DNA from: an uncultured archaeon | GTDB taxonomy: Archaea > Iainarchaeota > Iainarchaeia > Iainarchaeales > JAAZKV01 | DNA: 64,000 nucleotides | Assembly: GCA_964619405.1 (NCBI GenBank) | Contig: CAZUCF010000004.1 | Location: forward strand, 4,689-68,688 | Direction: 5' to 3' | Shown: one piece after another, positions 31,936 through 54,032 of the stretch | Layout: every line of letters begins with the position of its first letter | Numbering within the stretch: the first letter of the stretch is position 1 | Notes under the pieces: model-generated | The model's input: only the letters and a program-made list of their open reading frames with translations | Databases searched by the model: none | What the model was told of the DNA's origin: nothing | Made by a program: the position numbers and the translations under genes

Positions 31936-31995
31936 AATATCACAATTAATTTGTAATAGATTTACTTTTTATTTGTTTTTAATTTACAACATTAT

Positions 31996-33099: not shown

Positions 33100-33127
33100 T
33101 TATTAAAGATTTTTTAAAGGTTTTTTT

Positions 33128-36363: not shown

Positions 36364-36464
36364 AATACTATGTAATACTAAGTAATATATAAAAATGCTT
36401 GTTTTTTGTGGTTTTGTTTTTTGTGACGCGTTTTCTTTAAAAACAAATTCATCTTACTTTTATC

Positions 36465-37463
36465 ATGAAAAAAGCAATTGTTACTGGGGTAACAGGACAA
36501 GATGGTTCTTATTTAGCAGAATTATTATTGGATAAGGGGTATGAGGTCCATGGAATAATGCGTCGTTCTAGTTCATTTAATACCGAGAGGGTGGATCACT
36601 TGTATATTGACCCACACAAAAACACAAAATTCAAATTACATTTTGGTGATTTATCAGATTCAAGTTCTATTGGTTCATTAGTAAGAGAGGTTCAGCCAGA
36701 CGAGTTCTATAATTTGGGTGCCCAATCCCATGTAAGAGTAAGTTTTGATATTCCAGAATACACTAGTGATATTACTGGTTTAGGTGTTCTAAGATGTCTA
36801 GAAGCAATAAAACAATTTTCTCCTCACACAAAATTCTATCAGGCATCTAGTTCAGAAATGTTTGGAAAAGTTGTTGAGGTGCCTCAAAATGAGAATACTC
36901 CTTTTTATCCTCGGAGCCCGTATGGTTGTGCAAAAGTTTATGGTTATTGGATAACAAAAAATTATCGTGAAAGTTATGGTATGCATACCAGTAATGGGAT
37001 TCTTTTCAATCATGAGTCTCCAAGGAGAGGAGAAACCTTTGTTACTAGAAAAATAACAATGGCTCTTGCAAAAATCAAACTAGGTTTACAAGACAAACTT
37101 TATTTAGGTAATTTGGATGCGAAAAGAGATTGGGGTCATGCTCGTGATTACGTGGAAGCAATGTATTTAATGCTTCAACAACCACAAGGAGATGATTATG
37201 TTATTGCTACAGGTGAAACTCACTCTGTAAAAGAATTTTTAGAAGAAGCCTTTTCTTATTTGAAATTAAACTATCAAGATTATGTTGAAATTGATAAAAA
37301 ATATTTTCGTCCAGCAGAAGTGGATTTATTGTTAGGGGATTCTTCAAAGGCCCAAGCAAAATTAAATTGGAAATCCAAAATCACTTTTAAAGAATTGGTA
37401 AAAGAAATGGTGCAAGAAGACATAAAAAAAGCAGAAACCCTCTATTATGGGACAAAGAACTAG
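36465..37463 (+). CDS. gmd: GDP-mannose 4,6-dehydratase (copy 1)
   Basis: [68 protein letters not shown]-like CTTTAAAAAC lies about 27 nt upstream of the ATG. Confidence 0.9.
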
Positions 37464-37511
37464 TTTTTTTAAAAACAACAATTTAAAAATATTTAGCCCG
37501 CTATATATATT

Positions 37512-37724
37512 ATGGCTATTTTAAGTTCTGATGTTACTGTTCAAATGGTTAAATGGGCGGATAATAAAATAAAAAGTGGATTATATAAAAGTAAAAGCGA
37601 ACTTGTTAGGGAATTGTTTAGAGAAAAAATGCTTATGGATGATGATGCTTATTTACTTTCTCAAAAATCTCTAGAAAAAATCTGGGAAGATGAAGATGAT
37701 TCTTACTGGGAAAGCTTCTTGTGA
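37512..37724 (+). CDS. Small antitoxin-like protein upstream of MazF
   Basis: 70-aa ORF 6 nt upstream of the MazF-like gene, with an acidic C-terminus (EDEDDSYWESF). Assigned by position. Confidence 0.45.
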   Translation: MAILSSDVTVQMVKWADNKIKSGLYKSKSELVRELFREKMLMDDDAYLLSQKSLEKIWEDEDDSYWESFL

Positions 37725-37730
37725 TTAATC

Positions 37731-38063
37731 ATGGAACTTATTAATTTAGAACAACGTGAAATAATTATTGTAAGATATCCTTTTACTGATCCACGCGATT
37801 ATAAAATAAGACCAGCATTAATAATTTCTAATAGTAATTTTAACAAACGATTTGATCCTTTAATTTGTCCGATAACTACAAAAAAGAATTTTGGGAATTT
37901 TTTGATAAATAATGATTTAGAAAAAGGGAATCTGGAAAAAACAAGCTTTGTTAATACAAAAGTTATTTCTACCATTCATCCTGAATTAATATTAAAATCA
38001 ATTGGGAAATTAAAACCCAGTATTTTTGAAGAAATTAAAACAAATTTGATTAAAAATTTGTGA
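37731..38063 (+). CDS. MazF/PemK-family endoribonuclease toxin
   Basis: REIIIVRYPFTDPRDYKIRPALIISNSNFNKRFDPLICPITTK follows the PemK/MazF N-terminal pattern. Confidence 0.7.
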   Translation: MELINLEQREIIIVRYPFTDPRDYKIRPALIISNSNFNKRFDPLICPITTKKNFGNFLINNDLEKGNLEKTSFVNTKVISTIHPELILKSIGKLKPSIFEEIKTNLIKNL

Positions 38064-38092
38064 TTTTTATTATTAGTTTTTTTTTAAATTTA

Positions 38093-38224
38093 TTATTGAT
38101 ATTTTATAAATTCTTCTTCATTTATTTTTGCTAATTTTAGAATTCCTTTTAAAGTACCTATTTTTAGTTCGGGATGATTTGGCAGGATAGTTCCAATACT
38201 TGAATCAATTAAATTTCTTTCCAT
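38093..38224 (-). pseudogene. HicA-like toxin remnant (43 codons)
   Basis: My translation is MERNLIDSSIGTILPNHPELKIGTLKGILKLAKINEEEFIKYQ. The C-terminal half matches the HicA pattern (P.H...L..GTL..IL...I..EEF). The N-terminal GSH catalytic region is missing or degenerate, and no HicB is nearby. Confidence 0.35.
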
Positions 38225-38323
38225 AAAACCACTAAATAAATATGCCAAAACGATATATGAATATTTCTATTTATTTGGGATCAAACCAATAGTAATTAAA
38301 AATCAATTTATTCTATTCTTCTT

Positions 38324-39259
38324 ATGCAAGAAATAAATTTAGCAAATAAAAGAATCACTATTACTGGTGCTCACGGCTTCTTAGGAAAACATTTAGTTAG
38401 CGAATTTAAAAAAAATGGAATTACTAATTTATTCCTGCCAACTAGCAAAGAATATGATTTAGTTGAAAAAGAATCGTGTGAAGAAATAGCTAAAGAAAGT
38501 GACATAATAATTCATTTAGCAGCAAAAGTTGGTGGAATCCTTGCTAACAAAGAAAATCCTGCTACTTTTTTTTATGATAATTTAATGATGGGTGTACAAT
38601 TAATTGAACAAGCTCGTTTAAACAATGTTGAAAAATTTGTTGCATTAGGAACAGTTTGTGCTTACCCAAAATTTACTCCCATTCCATTTAAAGAAGAAGA
38701 TTTGTGGAAGGGTTATCCTGAGGAAACCAATGCGCCTTATGGTTTAGCAAAAAAAATGTTGTTAGTTCAATTACAAGCCTATAAAGAACAATATGATTTC
38801 AACGGAATTTATTTACTTCCAGTTAACTTGTATGGTCCAGGAGATAATTTTGATTTAACAAGTTCTCATGTAATTCCTGCCCTCATCAGAAAGTTTGTTG
38901 AAGCAAGAGAAAAAAATTCTCCAAAAGTAGAAATTTGGGGTACTGGTTCTGCTTCAAGAGAATTTTTATATGTAAAAGATGCTGCTCACGCAATTTTCCT
39001 TGCAACAAAAAACTATAACAAAACAGACCCAGTAAACCTTGGTTCTGGCTCAGAAATAACTATTAAAGATTTAGCCGAAAAAATCAAAACCCTAACTGGT
39101 TATAACGGAGAAATTGTTTTTGATTCTTCTAAACCCGATGGCCAACCTCGCAGATGCTTAGACACTTCAAAAGCCGAAAAAGAATTTGGTTTTAAAGCCC
39201 AAACAAGCTTTGATTCTGGTTTAAAAGAAACTATAAAATGGTGGGAAGAGAATTGTTGA
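38324..39259 (+). CDS. fcl: GDP-L-fucose synthase (GDP-4-keto-6-deoxymannose 3,5-epimerase/4-reductase) or the related ColC-type reductase
   Basis: [45 protein letters not shown] and a C-terminal pattern typical of Fcl/WcaG. Confidence 0.8.
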
Positions 39260-39261
39260 AA

Positions 39262-40013
39262 TTATTTCTCTAATCTGTATATAATATTAGTATTATTTTT
39301 GTGAGCGGCTTCATATCCTAAAAACTCTAAAAAAATTTGACTATTCTTGTTTTGTTTTCCACTTGTGTGTGGCACAGTTTCAATACAAATTATAGTTGGT
39401 TTAAAATTTTTTCCAATCATTTGATTCTAGTACTTCCATGTCAAATCCTTCAGTGTCAATTGAAAAGAAATCAATTTTTTTGTTTTTAGCATATTTTTCA
39501 AGAACTTTTTTTAATGGCAATGTTTTAACTTTTCTTTCTCTAATAAATTTGTATCCTTCTTTTATGTAAGATTTCATTTCTTTTTTTTGAGAATGTTGAT
39601 AACATATCCGGTTCCATTTCATAGAATGTTAAATTTCCTTCTTTTTTTGAAATCCCAATATTCAAGTTTATGTCTCTTTTTCTTTGTTCTAAAAATAATT
39701 TGTACCCTCTAATATTTGGTTCAATGTTTATTCCACTCCAACCTTTATCATAAAATCTTTTAGTATTGTTAAAACCAATTGGATTATTTGCTCCAACATC
39801 CACATAAAAACCATTTTTTTTATTTTTTAATAATGAATCTATTAGCATGTCTTCTCTATGTTGGCTGTATGAACCAAAAATAGTTAGAAAAGAATATTTA
39901 GTATTATATAATTTTCTAAGAAAAGCGTTTTGTGCGATCAACAAACTCAAAAAGTTTTTTATTTGCATATTAATGAAAACAAATAATTTGTTTTTAAATG
40001 TGAGTAATCGCAA
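39262..40013 (-). pseudogene. FkbM-family methyltransferase broken by two homopolymer frameshifts
   Basis: Three consecutive frames read through one protein. They are ...GFYVDVGANNPIGF...NIEPN...LTFYEMEPDMLSTFSKK / EMKSYIKEGY...IDFFSIDTEGFDMEVLESNDWK / NFKPTIICIETVPHTSGK...IIYRLEK. The shifts occur at an A8 run (39581-39588) and an A6T4 run (39403-39412). Confidence 0.7.
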
Positions 40014-40062
40014 TTCAATTCATACTGATACTATTTAAATATAAAATTATCTTATTATTGGT

Positions 40063-41412
40063 ATGAAAGAAAAAATAAAAACAGTTATTCCAAAAAAAAT
40101 TAGGCGTAAATTTACAAACAGACCAGTTTTACAAAAAATAGTAAAAAATATTGGTTGGTTAACTGGTGAAAGAATATTAGAGTTATTAGTTGCATTAACG
40201 GTGGGAATTTGGGTTGCACGTTATTTGGGTCCTAGTGATTATGGATTAATGAGTTTTGCGATTGCTTTTTGTTCATTATTTTCTCCGTTCATTAATCTTG
40301 GACTTGATACTATTTTACATAGGGAACTTGTTGATAAACCAGAAAAAAGTAATATTTTACTTGGAACAGTTTTTAGGATAAAATTCTTTTCAAGTATTGT
40401 TGTGGGTTTAGTAATGTTATTAATAATTTTTTTAATAAAACCAAGCGATTTTTTATTATTTTCAATGATTGGAGTATTTGCTCTTGGAAATATAGTTAAT
40501 ACTTTTGGAGGGATGGGTACTTATTTTCATGCAAAAATAGAATCAAATAAAGTGGTAAAATCATCAAGTATTGCATTAATTTTGAGTAATATTTTGAAAA
40601 TTTTCTTTATTTTATTTAATTTTTCAGTTTTTTATTTTGTAATAGCTTCTTTGATTAATACAATATTAATAATGTTAATTCAAACAATTTATTATTTCAA
40701 AGAAAAACAATCAATATTCAAATGGAAATTTGATTTAAAATTAGTAAAAAAAATGTTGTTAATGAGTTGGCCATTATTGTTTTCTGCTTTATTTGCAGTT
40801 ATTTATTTGAAAATTGATCAAGTAATGATTGGATTACTGCTTTCTGAATATGAAGTTGGAATTTATTCTGTTGCAGTAAGAATAAGCGAGATTGGATTTT
40901 TTTTACCAGGGGCAATTGCTGGTTCTTTATTTCCTGTTTTAATGGGGTCTAAAAAAATTTCTAAAGAAAAATATTTTGCAAGATTACAAAAAATGTTTGA
41001 TTTATTTACTTGGCTTCCTTTTTTAATAATTATTCCAATATTCTTTTTTTCTAGTTTTATTATAATTTTTTTATATGGGGCAGAGTTTGCTTTTGCTGGG
41101 ATAGTTCTTTCTATTCTAATATGGGTTCTTTTAGCTATTTTTGTTAAAGCTGGAGTAGATAATTTTATTAGTACTGAAAAATTATTCAAAATTAGTTTAT
41201 ATTCATCTATTATGGGAGCAACAATAAATATTATCGCAAATTTAATTTTGATTCCAACTTTTGGAATTGTTGGTGCTGCGTTTGCAACAATCATTTCTTA
41301 CTTTTTTGTTGCTTATTTTAGTAATTTATTCTTCAAAGAAACAAGGTTTTTATTTAAAATGCAATTAAAATCATTTAATTTAGTGAGGGTTATAAATGAA
41401 ATCAGAAAATAG
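40063..41412 (+). CDS. Wzx-type oligosaccharide flippase (MOP superfamily)
   Basis: KNIGWLTGERILELLVALTVGIWVARYLGPSDYG at the N-terminus and about 12 TM segments. Confidence 0.7.
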   Translation: MKEKIKTVIPKKIRRKFTNRPVLQKIVKNIGWLTGERILELLVALTVGIWVARYLGPSDYGLMSFAIAFCSLFSPFINLGLDTILHRELVDKPEKSNILLGTVFRIKFFSSIVVGLVMLLIIFLIKPSDFLLFSMIGVFALGNIVNTFGGMGTYFHAKIESNKVVKSSSIALILSNILKIFFILFNFSVFYFVIASLINTILIMLIQTIYYFKEKQSIFKWKFDLKLVKKMLLMSWPLLFSALFAVIYLKIDQVMIGLLLSEYEVGIYSVAVRISEIGFFLPGAIAGSLFPVLMGSKKISKEKYFARLQKMFDLFTWLPFLIIIPIFFFSSFIIIFLYGAEFAFAGIVLSILIWVLLAIFVKAGVDNFISTEKLFKISLYSSIMGATINIIANLILIPTFGIVGAAFATIISYFFVAYFSNLFFKETRFLFKMQLKSFNLVRVINEIRK

Positions 41413-42298
41413 TGAAGCTCTACCAATAATTTTTGTTCACAAAGGAGATTCTTTTTATTTAAAATATGCTTTAGAAAGTGCAAAAAAATTTAACCCAAAA
41501 TCAAGAATAATTTTGCTTGGTGATAATGTAACAATTTATCCTGGTTTTGTTGAATATTATGAAATGAATAAATTTGACAAATATTCAAAATTTTTAGAAA
41601 AAAATTATGTTCATTTGAATACTTCAAACCCTGAAATTGAAATGTTTTGTATTAAAAGATGGTTAGTTTTGCTTGATTTTGTTGAAAAACAAAAATTGAA
41701 AAAATTGTTTACTTGTGATTCTGATGTCCTATTATTTCAAAACATTACTGAAGATTCAAAAAATTATGAAAAATTTGATTTTCTTTTAGCAAATGGGAAT
41801 AGTGCTGGACTCACATTTATTAACAAAATAAAAGTTCTTGAACAATACAAAAACATTGTTTTTGACTTTTATAAAAATAAAGCTAAAAAAAATAATAAAA
41901 ACATTAGAATAACTGATATGAGTTTTTGGAAACAATTAAATGATTCTAAAAAGTTTAAGGTTGGAGAAGCAACAAAAATAATTGATAATGCATTTTATGA
42001 TTTTGGTTTTTTGTCTCAAAATTATTATTATGGAAAAAATAATTATGGCATAAAAAAATTAGTGTTCAAAAATGGACTTCCATTTGGAGAAATAAACAAT
42101 TCTTTAGTTAGGTTAAAGGTAATTCACTTTCAAGGTCCAACAAAGTTTTATATGAAAGATTTTTTACAAGGAAAAAACAATATTTTTATTGAATTAAAAG
42201 TAAAATCTTTGATTTGGTTCAGAGACAATTTTAGTGGAAAAATGTCTAATAATACTCGAATTAAAATAAAGCAGTTTATGGTAAAATTTGGTGTTTAG
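41396..42298 (+). CDS. Putative GT-A-type glycosyltransferase (DxD), family unclear
   Basis: LPIIFVHKGDSFYL..., CDSDVLLF (DxD-like). Sits inside the glycan cluster and overlaps the flippase gene by 17 nt. Confidence 0.3.
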   Translation: MKSENSEALPIIFVHKGDSFYLKYALESAKKFNPKSRIILLGDNVTIYPGFVEYYEMNKFDKYSKFLEKNYVHLNTSNPEIEMFCIKRWLVLLDFVEKQKLKKLFTCDSDVLLFQNITEDSKNYEKFDFLLANGNSAGLTFINKIKVLEQYKNIVFDFYKNKAKKNNKNIRITDMSFWKQLNDSKKFKVGEATKIIDNAFYDFGFLSQNYYYGKNNYGIKKLVFKNGLPFGEINNSLVRLKVIHFQGPTKFYMKDFLQGKNNIFIELKVKSLIWFRDNFSGKMSNNTRIKIKQFMVKFGV

Positions 42299-42306
42299 GT
42301 GTTGAA

Positions 42307-43416
42307 TTGAATAATTTAAAAGAAATTTATTTATTTTTTAATAATCTAAAATTGGAACTTTATAAAGTAAATTATATTCAAAAATTTGTTGGAAACTTCC
42401 CTAATAAAAAAAGGTTTTTTCCAGAATATGCAAATAAAACTAATTCAAAAATATTTTTTTTAGAAAATAAAGGGGGTATAATAAAAAAGCCGAGTACAAG
42501 TGAAAAAAAGATTCATGAAAAATTTCCAAAAAAGTATAAAGTGCCTAATAAACAAGTTTTTGTTGGTTTAATTAAAAATGCACGAATATTATCAAAAAAT
42601 GCTAACATTATAACAGAAGATAAAATTGATATTAACGAAGATATTTCTTCTTTGTCTGAAAGTATGACTTCTTATGAAAATTATTTAGTTTTGCCAAAAA
42701 TTAAAACAATTGATTCAAGAGTTTTAACAATTAGTAATTCAGAAAACTATTTTCACTGGATGTTTGAAATCCTGCCAAGATTACATTTTATTAAAAAAAC
42801 TGGTTTGAAAACAGATTATTACTTACTTCCAAGTAATAAGCAATTCCAAAAAGATTCAATTAAAGCTCTAAAAATTCCAGAAAAAAAAATTATTAATTTA
42901 AATGAAAAAACACACATAAAAACAAAAGAAGTATTATTTTCTTCAATGCCAAGTTATTCAGGAAATCCAACTCCTGAAATTTGTAGTTTTGTTAGAAAAC
43001 TGTTTTTAAAAAAATATGACAAAAAAAAGTATAAAAAATATGAAAAAATTTATGTTTGTAGAGGTAATGTAAAATATAGAAAAGTTTCAAACGAAAAAGA
43101 AGTAATTAGTTTTTTAGAAAAAAAAGGTTTTGTTTCTGTTAAAATGGATGGTTTATCAGTATTTGAACAAGCAAGAATATTCAATTCAGCAAAAATAATT
43201 ATTGCACCACATGGCGCGGCCCTAACCAACCTAGTTTTTTGTAAAAAAGGAACAAAAGTGATTGAACTTTTTAACCCAGATTATGTTAATGTTTGTTTTT
43301 GGACCATTGCAAACAATATTAATATTAAATATTTTTATGTTTTTGGTGAACGACAAATAGGCATTAAGCAGAATATGTTAATTAATATTTGTGTTTTTGA
43401 TAAAATATTTACTTAA
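42307..43416 (+). CDS. Glycosyltransferase family 61 / DUF563
   Basis: ENYFHWMFEILPRL and IIAPHGAALTNLVFC. TTG start according to the ORF track. Confidence 0.65.
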   Translation: MNNLKEIYLFFNNLKLELYKVNYIQKFVGNFPNKKRFFPEYANKTNSKIFFLENKGGIIKKPSTSEKKIHEKFPKKYKVPNKQVFVGLIKNARILSKNANIITEDKIDINEDISSLSESMTSYENYLVLPKIKTIDSRVLTISNSENYFHWMFEILPRLHFIKKTGLKTDYYLLPSNKQFQKDSIKALKIPEKKIINLNEKTHIKTKEVLFSSMPSYSGNPTPEICSFVRKLFLKKYDKKKYKKYEKIYVCRGNVKYRKVSNEKEVISFLEKKGFVSVKMDGLSVFEQARIFNSAKIIIAPHGAALTNLVFCKKGTKVIELFNPDYVNVCFWTIANNINIKYFYVFGERQIGIKQNMLINICVFDKIFT

Positions 43417-43488
43417 TTGTAATAAAAAACATTTTTAAATAAAAAAGGTTTAATTATTTTAAGATTTTTTTAATTTTTGGGTTAGGAA

Positions 43489-44061
43489 GTGTTTTGTTTG
43501 GATTATAAATATTTTAGAACTGTTGTTATTAGTCAAATAAAAGCGGTTGTTACTCAAAGAATTAATCCAATTGAGCTATTTATGAAACCAATCAATCCAA
43601 TTTGGATGAATTTAAAAATGCAAAAATGGTTTGATAATAATCTAAAAAAAGATATGCGTGTTTTTGAATATGGTAGTGGAAATTCAAGCAAATATATTGC
43701 ATCTAAAGTAAAAGAAATAATTTGTGTCGAAGACAGTGAAAAATGGTATGCATTTAACAAAAAGGGTGCTCCAAAAAACATGAAAATAATTTTGGCTAAA
43801 AATAAAATGGATTATGTTAATAATATAAAAAATAAAGGACTTTTTGATATTATTATTGTTGATGGGAATTATAGAAAAGAATGTTTTGAATCTGCTTTGA
43901 AAAGATTGAAAGTAGGTGGTTATTTAGTTTTTGATAATTTAGAAAGGCCTGAAAACTTAACTATATTTAATTCTATTAATGGTTCAAAAAAGTTATTTAA
44001 TGGTCTAATTCCTGGTCAAGGTGGATATTGTAAAACTGGAATTTATGTGAATCAAGAGTAA
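43489..44061 (+). CDS. Class I methyltransferase-like protein
   Basis: VFEYGSGNSSKYIA (motif I-like), IIIVDGNYRKEC, VGGYLVFDN. Confidence 0.4.
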   Translation: MFCLDYKYFRTVVISQIKAVVTQRINPIELFMKPINPIWMNLKMQKWFDNNLKKDMRVFEYGSGNSSKYIASKVKEIICVEDSEKWYAFNKKGAPKNMKIILAKNKMDYVNNIKNKGLFDIIIVDGNYRKECFESALKRLKVGGYLVFDNLERPENLTIFNSINGSKKLFNGLIPGQGGYCKTGIYVNQE

Positions 44062-44112
44062 TTAGATATCTAATTGCTTGGTTGTATCAAAACCTTTTTA
44101 TTTTGATTTTGA

Positions 44113-45279
44113 TTGATATTTGTTATGATTAAGTTGATGAAAAACACTTTTTTTAATGAGGCCTTAACTAAAAAGAATTTGGCCAATTTTATTGTTGGTT
44201 CTGAAAAGTTGAGTATGGGCCAGAAATGTTTTGAGTTTGAAGAAAAATTTTCTAAGTATCAAGGTAGAAAATATGCTGTTTTTGTTAATAATGGTAGTTC
44301 AGCAAATTTAGGGCTTATACAAAGTTTGATTAATCTTGGAAGGTTAAAAAAAGGTGATAAAGTTGGGTTTTCTTCAATTACTTGGGCGACAAATGTTATG
44401 CCTTTAATCCAATTAGGTTTAGAACCTATTCCAATAGATGTATCTGAAAAGAATCTTAATGTGGATATAGTTAATATTCAAAATTTAAAAGAAGATATTA
44501 AAGTTTTGTTTTTAACAAATCTTCTTGGTTTTTCTGGAAAAATTGATAAAATAAAAGAGTTTTGTGAAAAAAAAGGTATTATTTTGTTAGAAGATAATTG
44601 TGAGTCTCTTGGTAGTATTGTTGTTGGAGACAAATTAGGTAATTTTGGTTTAGCAAGCACATTTTCTTTTTTTGTTGGACACCATCTTTCAACAATAGAA
44701 GGTGGAATGGTTTGTACTGATGATTTTGATTTGTATAACATGCTTTTAATGGTGAGAGCACATGGTTGGACTAGGGATGTGGATGAAAAAACTGAAGAAG
44801 TTTTAAAGAAAAAATATTCAATTAATGATTTTTACAATCAATACACATTTTATTATAATGCTTATAATTTAAGACCAACAGAGATAAATGGTTTTTTAGG
44901 TTTAGAACAAATGAAATATGTAGAAAAAATTCACGAGGTTAGAAATAATAATTTCAAAAAATTTGAAAACGCGATTAAAAATAATGACGATTTTTTGAAA
45001 TTAGATTTTTCGCACATGGATTTTATTTCTAATTTTGCTTATCCATTAATTTGTAAAAATAAAACAATTTTAGAAAAATATTTGGAAAAGTTTTCAAATG
45101 TTGAAATAAGACCGATTGTTGGTGGGAGTATGGTAGAGCAACCATTTTTCGGGAACAAAAAATATTCTTGTCCAATAGCTAAAAAAATTCATGAGCTTGG
45201 TTTTTATATTCCAAACAATCCTGATTTAAATAAAGAAGAAATTGATTTTATGTGTAATATATTAGGTGATAAGAATTAG
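44113..45279 (+). CDS. ColD/RfbH-like sugar 3-dehydratase of the DegT/DnrJ/EryC1 fold (His replaces the Schiff-base Lys)
   Basis: GSSANL, STFSFFVGHHLSTIEGGMVCTDD (HH where aminotransferases carry K), RAHGWTRD. Confidence 0.6.
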   Translation: MIFVMIKLMKNTFFNEALTKKNLANFIVGSEKLSMGQKCFEFEEKFSKYQGRKYAVFVNNGSSANLGLIQSLINLGRLKKGDKVGFSSITWATNVMPLIQLGLEPIPIDVSEKNLNVDIVNIQNLKEDIKVLFLTNLLGFSGKIDKIKEFCEKKGIILLEDNCESLGSIVVGDKLGNFGLASTFSFFVGHHLSTIEGGMVCTDDFDLYNMLLMVRAHGWTRDVDEKTEEVLKKKYSINDFYNQYTFYYNAYNLRPTEINGFLGLEQMKYVEKIHEVRNNNFKKFENAIKNNDDFLKLDFSHMDFISNFAYPLICKNKTILEKYLEKFSNVEIRPIVGGSMVEQPFFGNKKYSCPIAKKIHELGFYIPNNPDLNKEEIDFMCNILGDKN

Positions 45280-45718
45280 TTCAAAATTTATTCCTGAATG
45301 TAAATACAAAATAATTATGGAAAATGTTCCAATAATATGTGTTGATTTGTTAGTAAAATATAACGATACATATTTGTTAATGTTAAGAAAAAATAATCCT
45401 ATTAAAGGAAAATATTGGATGCCGGGTGGCAGAGTTTATAAAAATGAATCTCTTGGAAAAGCAGTTAAAAGAAAATGTTTAGAAGAATGTGGTGTTAAAG
45501 TAAAAAATTATAAAAAAGTCGGTGTCATTGAATATATTAAAGAAGAAGCTCCATTTAATAATATTAAATCAGGAATTCATGTAGTAAGTATTGTTTATGA
45601 GATTTTAATAGATTCTAAAAATATTTTAATGGATTCCCAACACGATGATTATAAATGGGTGTCTTTTGAAAATTTTCCAAAAAAGTTAAAAGAAATGTTG
45701 AAAGGTTTTAATTTATGA
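45266..45718 (+). CDS. Nudix hydrolase, GDP-mannose mannosyl hydrolase (Gmm/WcaH)-like
   Basis: PGGRVYKNESLGKAVKRKCLEECGV is a Nudix box of the Gmm type. Overlaps both neighbouring genes. Confidence 0.55.
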   Translation: MIRISSKFIPECKYKIIMENVPIICVDLLVKYNDTYLLMLRKNNPIKGKYWMPGGRVYKNESLGKAVKRKCLEECGVKVKNYKKVGVIEYIKEEAPFNNIKSGIHVVSIVYEILIDSKNILMDSQHDDYKWVSFENFPKKLKEMLKGFNL

Positions 45719-46806
45719 TTCCACAGATTTTACCATGGATTGATGAAGAAGAAGTAAAAGAAGTTTCTGAGGCTGTTAAATCAACTTGGGTTACTGAAGC
45801 AAACAAAACAAAGAAATTTGAAGAAATGTTTAAGGAGTTAACTCAAACAAAGTATGCCCATGCTTTTTCTAATGGAACAGTAACCCTTTTTACTGCTTTA
45901 AAAGTATTAAATATTGGAAAGGGTGATGAAGTTATTACGCCAAGTTTTACATTTATTGCTTCAATTAATCCAATAATCATTGCTGGTGCAAATCCTATTT
46001 TAATTGATATTGATAAAGATACATTTTGTATTGATTACAAACTTATTGAAGAAAAAATTACGCCTAATACAAAAGCGATTATGCCTGTTCATTTATATGG
46101 ACAATCAGCTGATATGCCAAAAATAATGAAAATAGCTAAGAAACACGGTTTGCATGTTATTGAAGATGCTGCTCAAGCTGTTGGAGTAAAATTCAATGGA
46201 AAACATGCTGGCACTTTTGGAGACTATGGTAGTTTTTCTTTTTATGGTAATAAAACAATAACCACTGGTGAAGGTGGAATGTTAGTTACAAATAACAAAA
46301 AATTGTCTGATTTAGCATATCGTTATAAAAATCATGGGCGTTTAAAAAAAGGTGTTTTTATTCATGATTCAATAGGAATGAATTTTAGTTTTACTGAAAT
46401 GCAAGCTGCATTAGGAATAACTCAGCTTAAAAAATTAGAAAAAATAATTGATAAAAAAAATAAAATTCGTGAATATTATATAAAAGAGCTTTCTGAAATA
46501 AAAGAAATAAATTTTCCAAAAATTAATCCACGTTGTGAACCAGTTCATTGGTTTACTAACATAATGATTCCAAGTGCAAAAAAACTTTCTGAATTTTTGT
46601 TGAAAAAAGAAATTCAAACAAGACGATTTTTTTATCCAATATACAAACAACCATGTTATAAAAATTTTAATTTTAACAAAAATTTTCCAAATTCTGAATA
46701 TGCATATAATTGTGGTTTGTCATTACCGTCATCATATAATTTAACTGATAATGAATTAGAAAAAATTTGTTTTGAAATAAAGAAATTTTATTCAAATAAA
46801 AAATAA
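45715..46806 (+). CDS. DegT-family PLP sugar aminotransferase, GDP-perosamine synthase-like
   Basis: FSNGTVTLFTAL, HVIEDAAQAVG, FSFYGNKTITTGEGGML (Lys retained). Confidence 0.65.
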   Translation: MIPQILPWIDEEEVKEVSEAVKSTWVTEANKTKKFEEMFKELTQTKYAHAFSNGTVTLFTALKVLNIGKGDEVITPSFTFIASINPIIIAGANPILIDIDKDTFCIDYKLIEEKITPNTKAIMPVHLYGQSADMPKIMKIAKKHGLHVIEDAAQAVGVKFNGKHAGTFGDYGSFSFYGNKTITTGEGGMLVTNNKKLSDLAYRYKNHGRLKKGVFIHDSIGMNFSFTEMQAALGITQLKKLEKIIDKKNKIREYYIKELSEIKEINFPKINPRCEPVHWFTNIMIPSAKKLSEFLLKKEIQTRRFFYPIYKQPCYKNFNFNKNFPNSEYAYNCGLSLPSSYNLTDNELEKICFEIKKFYSNKK

Positions 46807-46875
46807 TAAAATAATTTTTTTGAAAATCATTATTGTACCTACTTATATTTAAATAATTTGTATAACTAATAATTT

Positions 46876-47883
46876 ATGGTTAAAAAGAAAGCAATTATAA
46901 CAGGGGTTACAGGGCAAGATGGTTCTTATTTAGCTGAATTGCTTCTTGAAAAAGGTTATGAAGTTCATGCTATTGTAAGAAGATCCAGTGTTTTTAACAC
47001 ATCTAGAATTGATCATCTTCATAATTATTTGAATGAAAAAGACTTTGTTACACATTATGGTGATTTGAGTGATTCAGCTTCTCTTGGAAAAATTGTGCGA
47101 GAAATACAACCAGATGAATTCTATAATTTAGGTGCACAATCCCATGTAAGAATAAGTTTTGATGTTCCAGAATATACTTTGGATACTGATGCAGTTGGAG
47201 TTGCGAGATGTCTTGAAGCAATAAAAGCTTATTCACCGCACACAAAATTTTATCAAGCATCAAGTAGTGAAATGTTTGGAAAAGTTTCTGAAATACCTCA
47301 AAAAGAAACAACTTCTTTTTATCCAAGAAGCCCATATGGTTGTGCAAAAGTTTGCGCTTATTGGCTTACACGAAATTATCGCGAAGCATATGGAATTCAC
47401 GCTTCTAACGGAATACTATTTAATCATGAGTCTCCGCGAAGAGGAGAAAATTTTGTTACAAGAAAAATAACTTTGTCTTTAGCAAGAATGAAATTTGGTT
47501 TACAAAAAGAATTATGTTTGGGAAATTTAGATGCTAAGAGAGATTGGGGTTATGCAAAAGAATATGTTGAAGCAATGTGGTTAATGCTACAACAGAAAGA
47601 ACCGGGTGATTATGTAATATCAACAGGAGAAACACACTCGGTTCAAGAATTTCTTGATGTTGCAGCGGATTATATTGGCATTGATTTGAAAGGGAAAATA
47701 AAAGTTGACCAAAAATATATGCGACCAACAGAAGTAGATTTATTACTTGGTGATTCAACAAAAGCAAGAACGAAACTAGGTTGGGAACCAAAAACAACTT
47801 TTAAAGAATTAGTAAAAATAATGGTTGATAGTGATGTTAACTTAGTTGAAAAAGAAGTTTATGGTATAAATGGAAAAAAATAA
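46876..47883 (+). CDS. gmd: GDP-mannose 4,6-dehydratase (copy 2)
   Basis: Carries the same signature set as copy 1. By eye, roughly two-thirds to three-quarters of residues are identical to 36465..37463. Confidence 0.9.
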
Positions 47884-47891: not shown

Positions 47892-48698
47892 TTATATTTT
47901 AAAAAATATATTTTTGTGCTTTTTATTACTTGCTGAAAAATATAAATTGTGTCTGTCATTATAAAAAGTCTCATAAATAATAACTTTTTTAAAAAATAAT
48001 TTTAACATTTTTTCAATTTCATTTCTATTTTTACAATCAACACCAATTATTACATTACCCGAAAAAATACCATTTTTATTCAAAGCAATTTTTATTTTTT
48101 TGAATAATTCTTTTGTTTCATTATTATTGAAATGTTGTAGTACTGCATCCATAATTATATTATCAAATTTTCCTTTTGGGAGTTCTTTTTTCAAATCCAT
48201 TATATAATATTCTATGTTTTTATGATTATTTTTTGATTTAGCTTTTGCAATTGCATTTTTGTCTATGTCTATACCTATTATCTTTTTTGCATTGAATGAG
48301 TAAAAATTTCGTGTATTAAAACCATCACCGCAAGCCAAATCTAAAACTAGACTATTTTTTTTTATTAATAGATTGTTAAATATGCCTCTTTCAAGCCACA
48401 TAGGATTTCTATTATTTATCCATGTATAGCATAGGTTGTTGTATCTATCAATGAATTTGGGTTCGGGGGGGCACCATTCAACAAAATATTTTAGTTTATG
48501 GCAGAAAAAGTTTATTTTAAAAGTACTTACTGAAAAGAACTCTATTATGGGCAAAATCCAAAAACGGTTTATTGATACTACTTTTTTAATATTTTTTTTT
48601 ATCATATTATCACGCGATAGACCATAACTAATTAATGTTTCTTTGTTTTTTAAATTAACTATTGAATAAAAGCAATTTTCATATAAGTTTTTTATCAA
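47892..48698 (-). CDS. Class I SAM-dependent methyltransferase
   Basis: LVLDLACGDGFNT (motif I), IIGIDIDKNAI, IIMDAVLQHF. Confidence 0.6.
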   Translation of the reverse strand: MIKNLYENCFYSIVNLKNKETLISYGLSRDNMIKKNIKKVVSINRFWILPIIEFFSVSTFKINFFCHKLKYFVEWCPPEPKFIDRYNNLCYTWINNRNPMWLERGIFNNLLIKKNSLVLDLACGDGFNTRNFYSFNAKKIIGIDIDKNAIAKAKSKNNHKNIEYYIMDLKKELPKGKFDNIIMDAVLQHFNNNETKELFKKIKIALNKNGIFSGNVIIGVDCKNRNEIEKMLKLFFKKVIIYETFYNDRHNLYFSASNKKHKNIFFKI

Positions 48699-48732: not shown

Positions 48733-49647
48733 ATGTCTGAAGCTTTTGCGCCAATTGTACTTTTTGTTTATTCTAGATTAGATCACACAAAAAAAACAGT
48801 TGAAGCATTAAACAAAAATTCTTTGGCTAAAAAAACAAATCTTTTTATTTTTTCTGATGGTCCAAAAAGACAGTCTGATAAAAAAGATGTTGAAAAAGTT
48901 AGAAATTATTTAAAAAAAATCAATGGTTTTAAATCAGTTAAGATTTTTGAAAGCAAAAAAAATAAGGGGTTAGCCAATTCAATAATTTTTGGAGTAACAA
49001 AAATAGTTAATAAATATGGCAAAGTAATTGTTGTTGAAGATGATATTTTAACATCAAAATATTTTTTAGAATTTATGAATAATTCTTTAAATTTTTATAA
49101 AAATAATTCAAAAGTAATTAGTGTTTCAGGTTACGTTTACCCAATAAAAAATCTCCCAGAAAACTTTTTTCTTAAAAAGACTGAGTGTTGGGGTTGGGCT
49201 ACTTGGAAAAGAGGTTGGGATTTATTTGAAAAAGATGGTTCAAAATTATTAAAACAAATTGAAGAAAAAAATTTACTTAAAGAATTTGATTTTGAAAATT
49301 CTTATGATTATTCTAAAATGTTAAAAGATCAAATTGCTGGTAAAAATAGTTCTTGGGCTATAAGATGGTATGCATCTGCTTTTTTAAATAATAAATTAAC
49401 TTTTTATTCTGGAAAGACATTGACACAAAATATTGGTGTTGATGGTACTGGTACGCATGGTGGGCGAGTAAATGTTTATAATTCAAAATTGTCTGATAAA
49501 TCAATTAAAATAGTTGATATTCCTATTCAAGAAGATTTAATTGTTAGAAAAAAATTTACAAATTATTTTAAAAAGATTCATTTTAGAATTTTTAAAGTTT
49601 ATATTCTTATAAAATCTTCAATTTGTGGATTAATTGGTTTTCAATAG
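48733..49647 (+). CDS. GT-A fold glycosyltransferase (GT2/GNT-I-like)
   Basis: APIVLFVYSRLDHTKKTVEAL, FIFSDGP, VIVVEDDIL (acidic DxD-equivalent). Confidence 0.5.
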   Translation: MSEAFAPIVLFVYSRLDHTKKTVEALNKNSLAKKTNLFIFSDGPKRQSDKKDVEKVRNYLKKINGFKSVKIFESKKNKGLANSIIFGVTKIVNKYGKVIVVEDDILTSKYFLEFMNNSLNFYKNNSKVISVSGYVYPIKNLPENFFLKKTECWGWATWKRGWDLFEKDGSKLLKQIEEKNLLKEFDFENSYDYSKMLKDQIAGKNSSWAIRWYASAFLNNKLTFYSGKTLTQNIGVDGTGTHGGRVNVYNSKLSDKSIKIVDIPIQEDLIVRKKFTNYFKKIHFRIFKVYILIKSSICGLIGFQ

Positions 49648-49715: not shown

Positions 49716-50897
49716 TTGTGTTATGGTGGTATAATGAAGATTGGTATTTTTTTAAATGATTCAAATATCCCGATTTCTGGTGGAGCTTTTACCCAAAGAG
49801 AAGCTATTATTGAAGCAATAATGAAAAAGAAGTCTAGTCATGAGATATTTTATTTTTTTTATGGGAGAAAGCCAACTGATAAAGTTTCAAAAAATTGTGT
49901 TTATCTAAAAGGAAAAATATTTTCTTGGTTGTGTAAAAAAATTTATTATGTTACTGGGTTTCAATTTTTTAAAAATATTATGCCATTAAACATTTCTCTT
50001 AAAAAAAATAAAATTGATTTATTATATTTTGTTGAACCAAATCCACAACCAGTTGTTGTACCATATATTTCTACTGTTTGGGATATTTTTCATCTTTTTG
50101 CACCATATTTTCCAGAAATAATTAATAATGAAGAATGGGAAAAAAGAGAATTAATGTATCAACGCTCATTAAGAAAATCTAGTTATGTTATAACGAGCAC
50201 ACAAGTTGGTAAAAATGACATATCAAAATATTATTCTGTTCCAAAAGAAAAAATAATGGTTATAAAGTCACCAATTATTGACTTTTTTTATAATTCTCCA
50301 AAAAAAGAAATTGATGTTAGAAAAAAATATTCTATTTCAAAAGATTATTTTTTGTATCCTGCGCAATTGTGGGCCCATAAAAATCATGTCCAAATTATTC
50401 AAGCAATTAGTTACATTAAAAAGTCGAAAAATAAAGAAGTTCATATTGTTTTAGTTGGTTCAGACAAAGGTAATAAAGAATATTTAGAAAAAATGGCAGA
50501 AAAAGAAAGCGTTTCTAACCAAATTCATTTTCTTGGTTTTGTTCCAACTGAAGATTTGTTTTATTTATACAAAAATGCTTTTGGTGCGATTTATTTGTCT
50601 TTTCTTAATGTTGAAGGTTTGCCACCTGCTGAAGCACAAGTAATTGGTTGTCCTGTTATTGTAACGAACAACCCTGCGTTAAGAGAACAACTTGGCAATG
50701 CAGCATTGTTTGTTAATCCACTTGATTGTAAAGAGTTAGCAAGTTTAATGTTAAATTTAATTAATAATAAAAAGTTAAGATTTGATTTAATTAGAAAAGG
50801 AAAAATAATTTCTAAAGAATTCCAAAAAGAAAAATTTGTTGAAAAACTATTTGAAATATTTGATGAATTTGCTGAACTGAGAAAAAGGTGGGATTAA
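49716..50897 (+). CDS. GT4-family (GT-B) glycosyltransferase
   Basis: C-terminal EGLPPAEAQVIGCPVIVTN (EX7E-type motif). MKIGIFLND at 49734 is the more likely start. Confidence 0.7.
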   Translation: MCYGGIMKIGIFLNDSNIPISGGAFTQREAIIEAIMKKKSSHEIFYFFYGRKPTDKVSKNCVYLKGKIFSWLCKKIYYVTGFQFFKNIMPLNISLKKNKIDLLYFVEPNPQPVVVPYISTVWDIFHLFAPYFPEIINNEEWEKRELMYQRSLRKSSYVITSTQVGKNDISKYYSVPKEKIMVIKSPIIDFFYNSPKKEIDVRKKYSISKDYFLYPAQLWAHKNHVQIIQAISYIKKSKNKEVHIVLVGSDKGNKEYLEKMAEKESVSNQIHFLGFVPTEDLFYLYKNAFGAIYLSFLNVEGLPPAEAQVIGCPVIVTNNPALREQLGNAALFVNPLDCKELASLMLNLINNKKLRFDLIRKGKIISKEFQKEKFVEKLFEIFDEFAELRKRWD

Positions 50898-50898: not shown

Positions 50899-51663
50899 AT
50901 TATAAAAAATCCAAAAATCTCAATTATCACTGTTTGTTTTAATGCTGAAAAAACAGTTGAAAATACAATAAAATCTGTTCTTTCTCAAAGTTACAAGAAT
51001 ATTGAATATATTATTGTTGATGGCCTTTCAAGTGATAATACTTTGGAGATTGTTGGGAAGTATAAGTATAGAATAGCAAGAATTGTTTCGGAAAAAGATA
51101 AAGGGTTATATGATGCAATGAATAAGGGAGTAAAACTAGCTAAAGGTGAAATAATTTATTTTTTGAATGCAGATGATGTGCTAGTTGACAAACATATTAT
51201 TAGAGAAGTAATGGAAGAATTTGAAAAGGATAACAAATTAGATTTGATTTTTGGTGATGTTGAATTTTTTTATCCAAAAGAAAATAAAACAATAAGAATT
51301 TCAAGAAATTTTTCAAAAAAAGATTTGCAAAATGGTTTTATGATTCCTCACCAAGGTTCTTTTGTAAAAAAGAAATGGTTACAAAAACACCCTTTTAATT
51401 TGAAATACAAGTCTAGCGCAGATTTTGACTTTTTTTGTAATATTTCAAAAGAAAACATTAAAGTAAAAAAATTAAACAAAATAATTGCAAAAATGGTTGT
51501 GGGTGGAGTAAGTTCTGGAAGCATTTCTTACAAAGAAACAGAAGAAGTAATAAGAAAACACTTTGGAGAATTCTATTATTACAAAATAAAAGCAAAGCAC
51601 TTTATTTATAGTATAATAAAAAAGATTCTAAAAATAATAAAAATAAATTATCACAAAGGATGA
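50899..51663 (+). CDS. GT2-family glycosyltransferase lacking a canonical start codon
   Basis: The frame is open from 50881. It reads KISIITVCFNAEKTVENTIKSVLSQSYKNIEYIIVDGLSSDNT, then DKGLYDAMNKG and FLNADD. There is no ATG/GTG/TTG before TTG 51043, which lies inside the conserved domain. GGTGG Shine-Dalgarno at 50887-50891 is followed by ATT (50893, 50899) and ATA (50902). Confidence 0.6.
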   Translation: MIKNPKISIITVCFNAEKTVENTIKSVLSQSYKNIEYIIVDGLSSDNTLEIVGKYKYRIARIVSEKDKGLYDAMNKGVKLAKGEIIYFLNADDVLVDKHIIREVMEEFEKDNKLDLIFGDVEFFYPKENKTIRISRNFSKKDLQNGFMIPHQGSFVKKKWLQKHPFNLKYKSSADFDFFCNISKENIKVKKLNKIIAKMVVGGVSSGSISYKETEEVIRKHFGEFYYYKIKAKHFIYSIIKKILKIIKINYHKG

Positions 51664-51740: not shown

Positions 51741-52196
51741 TTATTTAATTATTTTATCAATTTCTTTAACCAATTTATTTTTCTTATTAATTTTAACTGG
51801 CCTTAAATCTTTTAATAATTTTAATAGTTCTTTTTCATTTGTAGTCCATTTTACATTATATTTTTTTTCAAATGCTTCACAAATTTCTGTTTGGTGATCA
51901 TCAACTGCTTCACCAAACTTTTTTAACCTTGGAAACAAAATAAATTTTTTCTCCAAAGAAATTAAATCAATTATGCTTCCTACTCCAGCATGACTAATAA
52001 TCACATCAGACCAAACAATTTTTTTGTTGATTTCATGAGAACTAAGTATTTTTGAATAATTAATGTTTTTTGGTTTTAATGAACTATCGCCAATTTGAGC
52101 AAAAACTTCAAAACCTTTGAGAGAATCTATTGCTTTAATTAGTCTATCAAATGGGTAAGTTGAACCAACCATTACAAAAATCTTTTTTTTATTCAT
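51741..52196 (-). CDS. Alg13/PssE/Cps14G-like glycosyltransferase C-terminal (catalytic) subunit
   Basis: IFVMVGSTYPFDRLI and SHAGVGSI match the Glyco_tran_28_C pattern. Confidence 0.65.
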   Translation of the reverse strand: MNKKKIFVMVGSTYPFDRLIKAIDSLKGFEVFAQIGDSSLKPKNINYSKILSSHEINKKIVWSDVIISHAGVGSIIDLISLEKKFILFPRLKKFGEAVDDHQTEICEAFEKKYNVKWTTNEKELLKLLKDLRPVKINKKNKLVKEIDKIIK

Positions 52197-52198
52197 GT

Positions 52199-52642
52199 TT
52201 AATCAATTATTGAACCAATATATTTTGCTTTTGGAAAAAACTCAAGTCCTTCTTTCCATTGTACAAAAAAATAATCGCATTTTCCATAAATAAGTTTTCC
52301 ACATAAAGAAGGAGAATTTATTCTAGCCAAAGATTCAATATAAATTGTTTTTATTCCAAGATAATGTCCTATTAATAGAGCAGGATAACCTATCTCCGCA
52401 CCAGTACTTATTATTACGCTAGGCCTCTCCTTAATAATTATGTAGAAGCTTTGTAGGAAACTAATAATGAATCTAAAATGATTTCTTCTTGTTGGTAAAA
52501 TAAAATATTTTTTTGCTTTCAAATCTAATGCATTTATTCTTTTGTCTGTTATGAAAAAATGTTCTTTTCCTTTCCAAACTTTCTCTAGTTGTAAAGCTTC
52601 AGTTAAGTGCCCTCCAGCAGAACAAGCAATGCATATTTTCAT
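52199..52642 (-). CDS. Alg14/PssD/Cps14F-like subunit
   Basis: MKICIACSAGGHLTEALQL and STGAEIGYPALL. Lies 2 nt upstream of the Alg13-like gene. Confidence 0.65.
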   Translation of the reverse strand: MKICIACSAGGHLTEALQLEKVWKGKEHFFITDKRINALDLKAKKYFILPTRRNHFRFIISFLQSFYIIIKERPSVIISTGAEIGYPALLIGHYLGIKTIYIESLARINSPSLCGKLIYGKCDYFFVQWKEGLEFFPKAKYIGSIID

Positions 52643-54029: not shown

Positions 54030-54032
54030 AAT

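Follow-up and report, generated by a model that had tools for sequence, protein, structure and literature searches.

A DPANN-type N-glycosylation locus with two probable GDP-mannose-derived sugar modules, one for fucose and one pairing a ColD-type dehydratase with an aminotransferase

The window analysed here is a 64,000-nucleotide stretch of an archaeal contig (CAZUCF010000004.1; C4 in our numbering), in which six genes for the conversion of guanosine diphosphate (GDP)-linked sugars lie between positions 36465 and 47883. The source genome has a size of 0.96 Mb in 36 contigs, a G+C content of 28% and a completeness of 89%, and the named relatives of the window proteins are Nanoarchaeota/Woesearchaeota-type (DPANN) archaea. 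The region is best explained as that part of a conserved archaeal N-glycosylation (agl) locus which supplies its sugars, in a DPANN-type archaeon of about 1 Mb. An initial annotation of the window had named the same six enzymes and had placed AglH and AglB in their neighbourhood; all six are present, and both agl genes lie downstream (57849-58823 and 58992-61121, respectively). From these genes it had read three alternative fates of one intermediate, GDP-4-keto-6-deoxymannose, namely fucose, a 3,6-dideoxyhexose and perosamine. The six genes are listed below, and the last four of them are referred to as the cassette.

36465..37463, plus strand: gmd1, GDP-mannose 4,6-dehydratase assigned to the fucose module (TIGR01472, 543 bits)
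38324..39259, plus strand: Fcl-type GDP-4-keto-6-deoxymannose 3,5-epimerase/4-reductase (GDP-L-fucose synthase), which could also reduce the ColD product (NF047922, 304 bits)
44113..45279 (likely start ATG 44125), plus strand: ColD-type, pyridoxamine 5'-phosphate (PMP)-dependent GDP-4-keto-6-deoxymannose 3-dehydratase (PDB 2gms, 3e-59)
45266..45718, plus strand: Gmm/WbdI-like Nudix GDP-sugar hydrolase (1rya, 1.3e-13)
45715..46806, plus strand: Lys-type sugar 4-aminotransferase of the perosamine-synthase lineage (PF01041, 3e-115)
46876..47883, plus strand: gmd2, the GDP-mannose 4,6-dehydratase of the cassette (TIGR01472, 510 bits)

Both gmd genes encode full-length proteins that score above the curated cut-off (415 bits) of the Gmd equivalog model TIGR01472, at 543 bits for gmd1 and 510 bits for gmd2. 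The two proteins are 70% identical to each other and 55-59% identical to E. coli Gmd. The proviso of the initial annotation, that one copy might prove to be another short-chain dehydrogenase/reductase (SDR), can thus be dropped, as both are true Gmd by this model. In the Gmd tree, gmd1 clusters with the fcl-adjacent gmd of the same-genus genomes G010 and G121, and gmd2 clusters with the cassette gmd of genomes G133 and G139 and locus L006. Each grouping has a support of 98 in the Shimodaira-Hasegawa-like approximate likelihood-ratio test (SH-aLRT), and all of these genes fall inside one family-level clade. Thus, the two copies are module-specific paralogues that originated within this archaeal family and do not point to extra flux control. 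In G010 the gmd1 orthologue stands beside fcl and no gmd follows the aminotransferase gene; G139 and L006 carry the cassette gmd alone and the window carries both, and evidently a single copy, either one, suffices. Toxin-antitoxin genes (PIN with RHH, and MazF) surround gmd1 in the window (35669-38063). A recent insertion of gmd1 brought by these genes was considered and ruled out, since its orthologue in G010 lies beside fcl without them.

The product of the gene at 38324-39259 is an extended SDR whose best family by far is GDP-L-fucose synthase (NF047922), with a score of 304.5 bits that lies under the curated cut-off of 500. Among solved structures it matches E. coli GMER best (3.5e-66), and it is 39.6% identical to E. 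coli Fcl versus 35% to ColC, the Fcl-homologous epimerase/reductase of the colitose pathway. At E. coli positions 107, 109, 136, 140 and 179 it carries T-C-Y-K-H, which comprises the SDR triad and the Cys109/His179 epimerisation pair. The catalytic residues of ColC are identical, so this set does not separate Fcl from ColC. Similarly, the Fcl tree assigns the window gene to a clade that includes neither ColC nor Fcl of E. coli, with ColD-adjacent genes intermixed with true Fcl, and the assignment of the gene to one type or the other by phylogeny gave no separation. In addition to the window gene itself, the 13 rows of this clade include seven genes more than 1.5 kb from ColD, four adjacent to it and one within 1.5 kb. 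The 38324 gene neither groups with a characterised ColC nor adjoins ColD.

In a profile of 17 genomes of the same family, the module of Gmd and Fcl-like genes occurs in eight, four of which are without ColD and the aminotransferase. Further, the gene for a GT10 fucosyltransferase (FucT) is kept in loci L004 and L006 and in genome G055, where Gmd, Fcl and FucT are present and the cassette is absent. The single Fcl/ColC-type gene of the window therefore belongs with gmd1 and the GT10 fucosyltransferase. In this first module, Gmd1 and the Fcl-type epimerase/reductase would provide GDP-L-fucose for the GT10 fucosyltransferase.

The best structural match of the 44113 protein is ColD/WbdK of E. coli O55 (2gms, 3e-59), versus 2.6e-36 for the cytidine diphosphate (CDP)-sugar enzyme E1, and the protein is 34% identical to ColD of E. 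coli O111. The RfbH model gives 186 bits, under its cut-off of 423. The motif FFVGHHLST aligns with FYSHHIAT of ColD, with a His at the position of the Schiff-base Lys of aminotransferases and Gly-His-His in place of Asn-Lys. Ser187 of ColD is Gly in the window enzyme, and the H188N and H188K variants of ColD mark the aligned His position. The [2Fe-2S] stretch of E1, RDCYCAPGCDNTCKK, aligns with TRDVDEKTEEVLKK in the window protein, which has no Cys there, and the length of 384-388 residues is that of ColD, E1 having 437. A family consensus, MIKLMK, points to ATG 44125 as the start. Criteria that separate ColD from the iron-sulphur (Fe-S) enzymes E1 and SpnQ, the latter a characterised 3-dehydratase of the Fe-S type, unlike ColD, have been reviewed (PMC8987622). 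The placement of the 44113 protein is with ColD and not with E1. The initial annotation had allowed that this protein or the aminotransferase might cluster with enzymes acting on uridine diphosphate- or CDP-linked sugars; the best characterised matches of the two are ColD and perosamine synthase (Per), respectively.

The family to which the 44113 protein belongs is very large and spans both domains, with about 8000 database matches (nearly all of the 8000 candidates scored). Homologues 45-60% identical to it are found in bacteria of the candidate phyla radiation (CPR), Bacteroidota, Planctomycetota, a Streptomyces isolate and DPANN archaea. Among 81 loci with ColD homologues, an Fcl-type gene lies within 1.5 kb in 42 and gmd in 28. 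Triads of gmd, colD and fcl are frequent, and the closest homologues of the window enzyme lie in such triads (L011, L012). Thus, a GDP-linked, colitose-type pathway is likely to be the norm for the ColD family. In the window, gmd2 shares the cassette with the 44113 gene and no Fcl/ColC-type gene adjoins it, the sole one lying 5 kb away in the gmd1 module.

With both gmd genes genuine and gmd close to so many of the 44113 homologues, the GDP-sugar type that the initial annotation had assumed for all of these enzymes is supported. A different sugar or nucleotide would nevertheless account for the tailoring enzymes scoring under their equivalog cut-offs (Fcl 304 of 500, RfbH 186 of 423 and Gmm 63 of 146 bits), for a genome with two generic sugar-1-phosphate nucleotidyltransferases and no ManC, and for the fusion of some ColD homologues to an unrelated SDR. 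The substrate might then be a heptose or a CDP- or deoxythymidine diphosphate (dTDP)-linked sugar, or the Fcl-like enzyme might lead to another 6-deoxyhexose such as 6-deoxytalose. We consider this very improbable, given that the enzymes are flanked by two bona fide Gmd genes, that gmd is the commonest neighbour of the ColD family across phyla, that the Cys/His epimerisation residues of Fcl are retained and that the locus has a conserved GT10 fucosyltransferase.

The fusions just mentioned include proteins of 650-666 residues from Nanoarchaeota-type genomes (P0087, P0095, P0114 and P0116), in which an extended SDR of about 270 residues is joined to a ColD-type domain within one chain. The SDR domain matches no specific family and has no orthologue in the window, the nearest protein of the genome being 30% identical and encoded on contig C23. 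These fusions suggest a dehydratase-reductase route in those lineages. In Peribacteria loci L023, L030, L032 and L072, the ColD-type gene adjoins gmd, and in L023 the two are followed by a further SDR that resembles Gmd (48% identity). No Fcl-type gene was found in the genomes of L023 and L030, the two that were checked. These loci hint at a D-configured GDP-3,6-dideoxyhexose formed via an Rmd-like reductase.

The 45715 protein keeps the Asn-Lys pair of the aminotransferases (SFYGNKTITTGEGG). Its identity to E. coli O157 RfbE/PerA is 41% (261 bits), and it matches Caulobacter perosamine synthase with 228 bits (1.8e-66); the structure 7b0m, an uncharacterised 'sugar aminotransferase', scores slightly higher. 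Literature searches for the PDB entries 7B0D and 7B0M, and for colitose or perosamine in archaea, yielded nothing useful. The reading frames of colD and the Nudix gene overlap by 14 nucleotides, and those of the Nudix and aminotransferase genes by four (ATGA), so the three are translationally coupled. A 69-nucleotide AT-rich spacer precedes gmd2.

The pairing of dehydratase and aminotransferase recurs well beyond the window. In a reciprocal test, 80 metagenomic loci with aminotransferase homologues 47-66% identical to the window protein were sampled, 39 of which were informative in having flanks of 1.3 kb or more on each side. A ColD gene with the GHH motif is directly adjacent to the aminotransferase gene in 24 of the 80, in both gene orders (14 of the 39 informative loci), and lies within 1 kb in another two. 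The pair thus occurs in about a third of the sampled loci. Twelve of the 80 have another His-type DegT neighbour, with an AHF or AHL motif, and any His-type partner is present in 21 of the 39. The aminotransferase and ColD trees contain the same three coupled clades, formed by the window family with L091, by L157, L159, L059, L156 and L161, and by loci of the metagenome scan within the range L099-L168. The distance matrices of the two proteins are correlated (Mantel r 0.71, with none of 2000 permutations as high). Locus L091, on a 9-kb contig without Fcl, is a compact gmd-colD-aminotransferase triad that mirrors the gmd-colD-fcl triads of L011 and L012. Within the archaeal family, orthologues of ColD and the aminotransferase are found in four of the 17 genomes (G000, G010, G133 and G139) and always together.

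These observations bear on the three independent fates proposed initially. That proposal is poorly supported for the fucose and dideoxyhexose branches, there being one Fcl/ColC-type gene only, tied to gmd1 and FucT and persisting in genomes without ColD, and likewise for separate ColD and aminotransferase branches, the pair being coupled, co-inherited, recurrent and co-diversifying across phyla. Two self-contained GDP-mannose-derived modules probably fit better than three branches. Since the ColD and aminotransferase genes are coupled, co-inherited and co-diversifying, one serial pathway is favoured for them over two. In such a pathway, Gmd2 would form GDP-4-keto-6-deoxymannose, the His-type ColD enzyme would strip the 3-hydroxyl to give GDP-4-keto-3,6-dideoxymannose, and the Lys-type aminotransferase would aminate C4, yielding GDP-4-amino-3,4,6-trideoxy-hexose (3-deoxy-perosamine). 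The lasting adjacency to a 3-dehydratase suggests that the 3-deoxy ketosugar is the substrate of the aminotransferase. Subsequently, a neighbouring S-adenosylmethionine (SAM)-dependent methyltransferase may methylate the sugar, and a GT4 glycosyltransferase found only with the cassette would add it. We infer the order of reactions and the product from the enzyme families, catalytic signatures, gene coupling, distribution and co-diversification described above, and hold the chances that the serial route to GDP-4-amino-3,4,6-trideoxyhexose operates to be about even. Consistent with it, tblastn found no match to the N-acetyltransferase PerB in the genome, a methyltransferase is always near the cassette and the GT4 gene is, among the loci examined, limited to those with the cassette. 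Known perosamine glycans involve an N-acyl- or N-formyltransferase, whereas protein-family scans of the locus showed no acyltransferase family among its open reading frames (ORFs).

The chemistry of such a route is made plausible by two precedents. Cook and Holden reportedly prepared GDP-4-amino-3,4,6-trideoxy-D-mannose in vitro in 2008 with Caulobacter GDP-perosamine synthase, combining Gmd, ColD and Per-type enzymes artificially. The title of their report (Biochemistry 47:2833) speaks of a 'novel trideoxysugar' made with a perosamine synthase. The enzyme types match those of the window, with the difference that the window genes form a natural, conserved cassette. The other precedent is the synthesis of TDP-D-forosamine in Saccharopolyspora spinosa, in which the dehydrase SpnQ acts before the 4-aminotransferase SpnR, followed by the N,N-dimethyltransferase SpnS. 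It shares with the window the PMP-dependent 3-dehydration of a 4-ketosugar, transamination at C4 and a nearby SAM methyltransferase. In contrast to the window enzymes, however, it uses dTDP-linked 2,6-dideoxy substrates, SpnQ carries an Fe-S centre and depends on a reductase, and the product is part of a secondary metabolite rather than a protein glycan.

Several points weigh against a serial route. The aminotransferase is 41-44% identical to proven perosamine synthase, and a large ColD-free sister clade of it looks like ordinary Per, located beside gmd-fcl. The four cassette genomes are close relatives, so that their co-occurrence counts for roughly one event, and adjacency and co-diversification of the pair can also come from joint inheritance of two sugars of one glycan. 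Both the window locus and most of the long-flank loci with ColD and aminotransferase also contain an Fcl-type gene. Most genomes with the pair have such a gene somewhere, the small CPR genome of L027 alone being without it, and in a few CPR genomes (e.g. L024) members of the Fcl clade of the window are ColD-adjacent. Moreover, we know of no natural glycan with a 4-amino-3,4,6-trideoxyhexose of this kind, and to our knowledge GDP-4-amino-3,4,6-trideoxy-hexose has so far been made only in the test tube.

In the alternative of parallel branches, the Fcl-like enzyme leads to GDP-fucose, ColD together with the Fcl-like enzyme acting as ColC leads to GDP-colitose, and the aminotransferase leads to GDP-perosamine. 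The glycan would then hold two or three GDP-derived deoxysugars, and a mixture of up to four GDP-sugars is possible. Every enzyme needed is present; ColC and Fcl are homologous with common catalytic residues, so that one enzyme may serve both substrates. ColD stands next to an Fcl-type gene in 42 of the 81 loci of the wider family, and the aminotransferase is 41% identical to PerA. E. coli O157 unites gmd, fcl, per and a Nudix gene, and O111 unites gmd, a Nudix gene, colC and colD. The glycosyltransferases of the locus are also numerous enough for several sugars, although among the loci examined just one of them, GT4, is limited to those with the cassette. Against separate branches, the sole Fcl-type gene lies 5 kb from ColD in the gmd1/FucT module and is kept in relatives without ColD, ColD and the aminotransferase are never apart in the family and co-diversify across phyla, and no perosamine N-acyltransferase was found. 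Parallel branches are therefore regarded as rather unlikely, if still a serious candidate.

The tight pairing, and the frequent co-occurrence of an Fcl-type SDR with the pair, could also be explained by the aminotransferase acting first. GDP-perosamine would then bind as an external aldimine to the pyridoxal 5'-phosphate form of the His-type enzyme and be deaminated and dehydrated to GDP-4-keto-3,6-dideoxymannose, which the Fcl-type enzyme would reduce to colitose, the end products being fucose and colitose. A crystal of a ColD variant with cofactor-bound GDP-perosamine is known (3B8X; PMC8987622), and without the Lys the glutamate half-reaction of ColD would be expected to be slow. However, there are very many gmd-colD-fcl operons without an aminotransferase, with ColD up to 60% identical to that of the window, and thus ColD does not generally need such a partner. 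Moreover, L091, L130, L149 and L150 have the pair and no Fcl-type gene nearby. We judge this order of events highly unlikely.

Many aminotransferase loci without a ColD neighbour (L095-L167; e.g. L096:2666-3855, L114:3-1050 and L144:6753-7980) contain a divergent second DegT protein with His at the Lys position. Its motif is CFSTYVAHFLVTGVGG, or SFYIAHNIQAGELG in L144, and it may represent a further, uncharacterised kind of sugar dehydratase that partners this aminotransferase lineage.

The Nudix protein encoded between the paired genes (45266-45718) has as its best match the GDP-mannose mannosyl hydrolase 1rya (1.3e-13). It is 34% identical to WbdI of the E. coli O111 colitose cluster, within a range of 27-34% to Gmm and WbdI, and the NCBIfam Gmm model gives 63 bits against a cut-off of 146. 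The catalytic-His motif of Gmm is kept (QHDDYKW), the Nudix box, RKxxEE, is more canonical than the single-Glu box of Gmm, and the C-terminal extension of Gmm is absent. By analogy with what is assumed for WbdI and Gmm, the protein would trim the GDP-sugar pool.

The cassette and the fucose module are embedded in a larger set of glycan genes. These include a Wzx flippase, GT61, GT4, GT2 and GT10 glycosyltransferases, an Alg13/Alg14 pair, AglH and AglB, as well as two conserved proteins of 300 and 304 residues without an assigned family. The other features of the locus are as follows.

39540-40013, minus strand: FkbM-type methyltransferase ORF, partial domain (157 residues)
40063..41412, plus strand: Wzx/MOP-type flippase (Pfam Polysacc_synt, 1.3e-28), kept in related loci
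41396..42298, plus strand: conserved 300-residue protein, core of the locus, with orthologues in all related loci and no match in Pfam/NCBIfam
42307..43416, plus strand: GT61-family glycosyltransferase (PF04577, 1.3e-31)
43489..44061, plus strand: class I SAM methyltransferase-like protein upstream of the cassette (Methyltransf_24, 6.5e-05, under the gathering score)
47892..48698, minus strand: class I SAM methyltransferase, candidate sugar N-/O-methyltransferase (Methyltransf_25/11/31, down to 1e-15)
48733..49647, plus strand: conserved 304-residue GT-A-like protein, probable glycosyltransferase (weak matches; EDD motif)
49716..50897, plus strand: GT4-family (Glycos_transf_1) glycosyltransferase (PF00534, 9.6e-27)
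51043..51663, plus strand: GT2 glycosyltransferase (PF00535, 5e-10)
51741..52642, minus strand: Alg13-like and Alg14-like pair, for the second N-acetylglucosamine (GlcNAc) of a chitobiose core (PF04101, 2.4e-14; PF08660, 2.5e-17)
54033..54980, minus strand: GT10 alpha-1,3-fucosyltransferase-like enzyme (PF00852, 1.7e-16; FucT_N, 4.8e-14)
57849..58823, minus strand: AglH-type GlcNAc-1-phosphate transferase (PF00953, 2.1e-33)
58992..61121, minus strand: AglB/STT3 oligosaccharyltransferase (PF02516, 2.5e-18)

The gene order from the Fcl-like gene to AglB is the same in L004 and L006/L007, contigs with ColD homologues 72-74% identical to that of the window. In genomes G102 and G055, a dTDP-sugar cassette consisting of RmlB-like, RmlA-like, DegT, FdtA and methyltransferase genes lies between the GT2 gene and the gene for the 304-residue protein (L173:1047-6064 and L176:4495-8823, respectively). 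From its gene content, this set would encode the classical serial route to a dTDP-3-amino-3,6-dideoxyhexose. As a serial aminosugar cassette thus occupies the place between the same flanking genes, this stretch of the agl locus is best read as a serotype-like variable slot that supplies one amino-deoxysugar. A SAM methyltransferase gene neighbours the cassette in every relative, and an orthologue of the 47892 methyltransferase adjoins it in G010 and L004. An assignment of the 47892 protein as a TylM1/DesVI-type sugar N,N-dimethyltransferase was unsupported, its PDB matches being generic SAM methyltransferases only. The GT4 gene was present in the window, G010, G133, L004 and L006, and was not seen in the loci of G102 and G055, which are without the ColD cassette. 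The suggestion of the initial annotation that the glycan is elaborate or variable is borne out, with the ColD cassette in four of 17 family genomes and a dTDP-aminosugar cassette in relatives instead.

In terms of known systems, the GDP-L-colitose pathway of E. coli O55/O111 and Yersinia pseudotuberculosis (Gmd, ColD/WbdK, ColC/WbdJ and WbdI) is similar in that Gmd is followed by a His-type PMP-dependent 3-dehydratase without Fe-S (PMC8987622), with a Gmm-like Nudix protein in the cluster and an Fcl-homologous epimerase/reductase available. It differs in that the window ColD is 34% identical to E. coli ColD and part of a very large uncharacterised family, that a Lys-type aminotransferase takes the place of ColC, and that the setting is an AglB locus and not an O-antigen cluster. 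The E. coli O157 cluster (gmd, fcl, per/rfbE, a Gmm-like Nudix gene, manC, manB and perB) similarly unites Gmd, Fcl, a Per-type enzyme and a Nudix protein in one locus. Unlike the window, it is without ColD, has a single gmd in an O-antigen cluster and includes ManC, ManB and PerB, which were not detected in the window genome. Archaeal agl clusters contain AglB, AglH and Agl24 or Alg13/14-type chitobiose enzymes (PMC11407970), and the window likewise clusters AglB, AglH, Alg13/Alg14, a flippase and glycosyltransferases with nucleotide-sugar genes. In a search of that 2024 review of archaeal N-glycosylation, the only fucose-type sugar that turned up was 6-C-sulfo-D-fucose and the one mention of DPANN was taxonomic (PMC11407970). 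The exchangeable aminosugar slot of the window, by contrast, is reminiscent of the serotype variation of bacterial O-antigens.

Every enzyme type and every pair of branches thus has a precedent in E. coli O-antigen clusters. New are the archaeal AglB setting, the two module-specific Gmd, the exchangeable aminosugar slot and the pairing of a ColD-type enzyme with an aminotransferase and not with a reductase. No description of the N-glycan of a DPANN archaeon was found in the literature. The locus predicts a chitobiose-based glycan with fucose and a rare amino-deoxysugar, made by chemistry in the style of bacterial O-antigens. The exchange of cassettes between close relatives suggests that ultra-small symbionts vary their surface glycans, possibly under pressure from viruses or hosts. 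If correct, the serial route could add a natural nucleotide sugar and provide a function for a very large family annotated only as 'DegT aminotransferase'. Tentatively, and with somewhat less than even confidence, we propose further that GDP-4-amino-3,4,6-trideoxy-hexose is a natural and widespread sugar made by an ancient, co-evolving pair of DegT enzymes (a His-type 3-dehydratase and a Lys-type 4-aminotransferase) that is exchanged as a cassette among bacteria and archaea, and that in the archaeon of the window it is placed, perhaps N-methylated, on AglB-dependent N-glycans, where it alternates from strain to strain with the product of the dTDP-3-amino-3,6-dideoxyhexose cassette and so causes serotype-like variation.

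The source of GDP-mannose for both modules was sought in the whole genome, the initial annotation having noted that manB and manC are absent from the window. Neither ManC (TIGR01479) nor a phosphomannomutase (PGM_PMM_I) was found in the 0.96 Mb, and tblastn with E. coli ManC and ManB gave no match. Of 21 family genomes, 19 are without the PGM_PMM_I (alpha-D-phosphohexomutase) domain, some of them 92-94% complete. The two generic sugar-1-phosphate nucleotidyltransferases are encoded elsewhere in the genome, one of them beside an SDR with a GDP_Man_Dehyd/Epimerase fold, possibly an RmlB-type dehydratase. The 304-residue protein encoded at 48733 was considered as a hidden ManC and rejected, since it matches three families equally weakly (NTP_transferase 19 bits, GNT-I 17 and GT2 15.6) and has an invariant EDD motif. 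Its AlphaFold model is poor (predicted local distance difference test score of 52) with a Rossmann-like N-terminus, and it is more likely to be a GT-A glycosyltransferase. Overall, known routes to mannose-1-phosphate or GDP-mannose seem to be lacking in the lineage, and uptake of GDP-mannose from a host is possible. As neither phosphomannomutase nor ManC was found, the modules would have to draw GDP-mannose from outside or from an unrecognised source, a point relevant to the feeding of such cells.

A few further features of the window accompany the glycan genes. An AbiEii module lies between Alg14 and FucT and a DDE transposase gene before AglH (52819-57735); loci L004 and L006 are without these mobile elements and without the toxin-antitoxin genes of the window. 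The FkbM-type ORF at 39540-40013 has 157 residues compared with 221-239 in relatives and may be disrupted by frameshifts. Upstream of the glycan locus, beside apt, a three-gene set that includes an MtnA-like ORF (Pfam IF-2B family) occupies 31195-33727, and in G010 this set is kept adjacent to gmd1.

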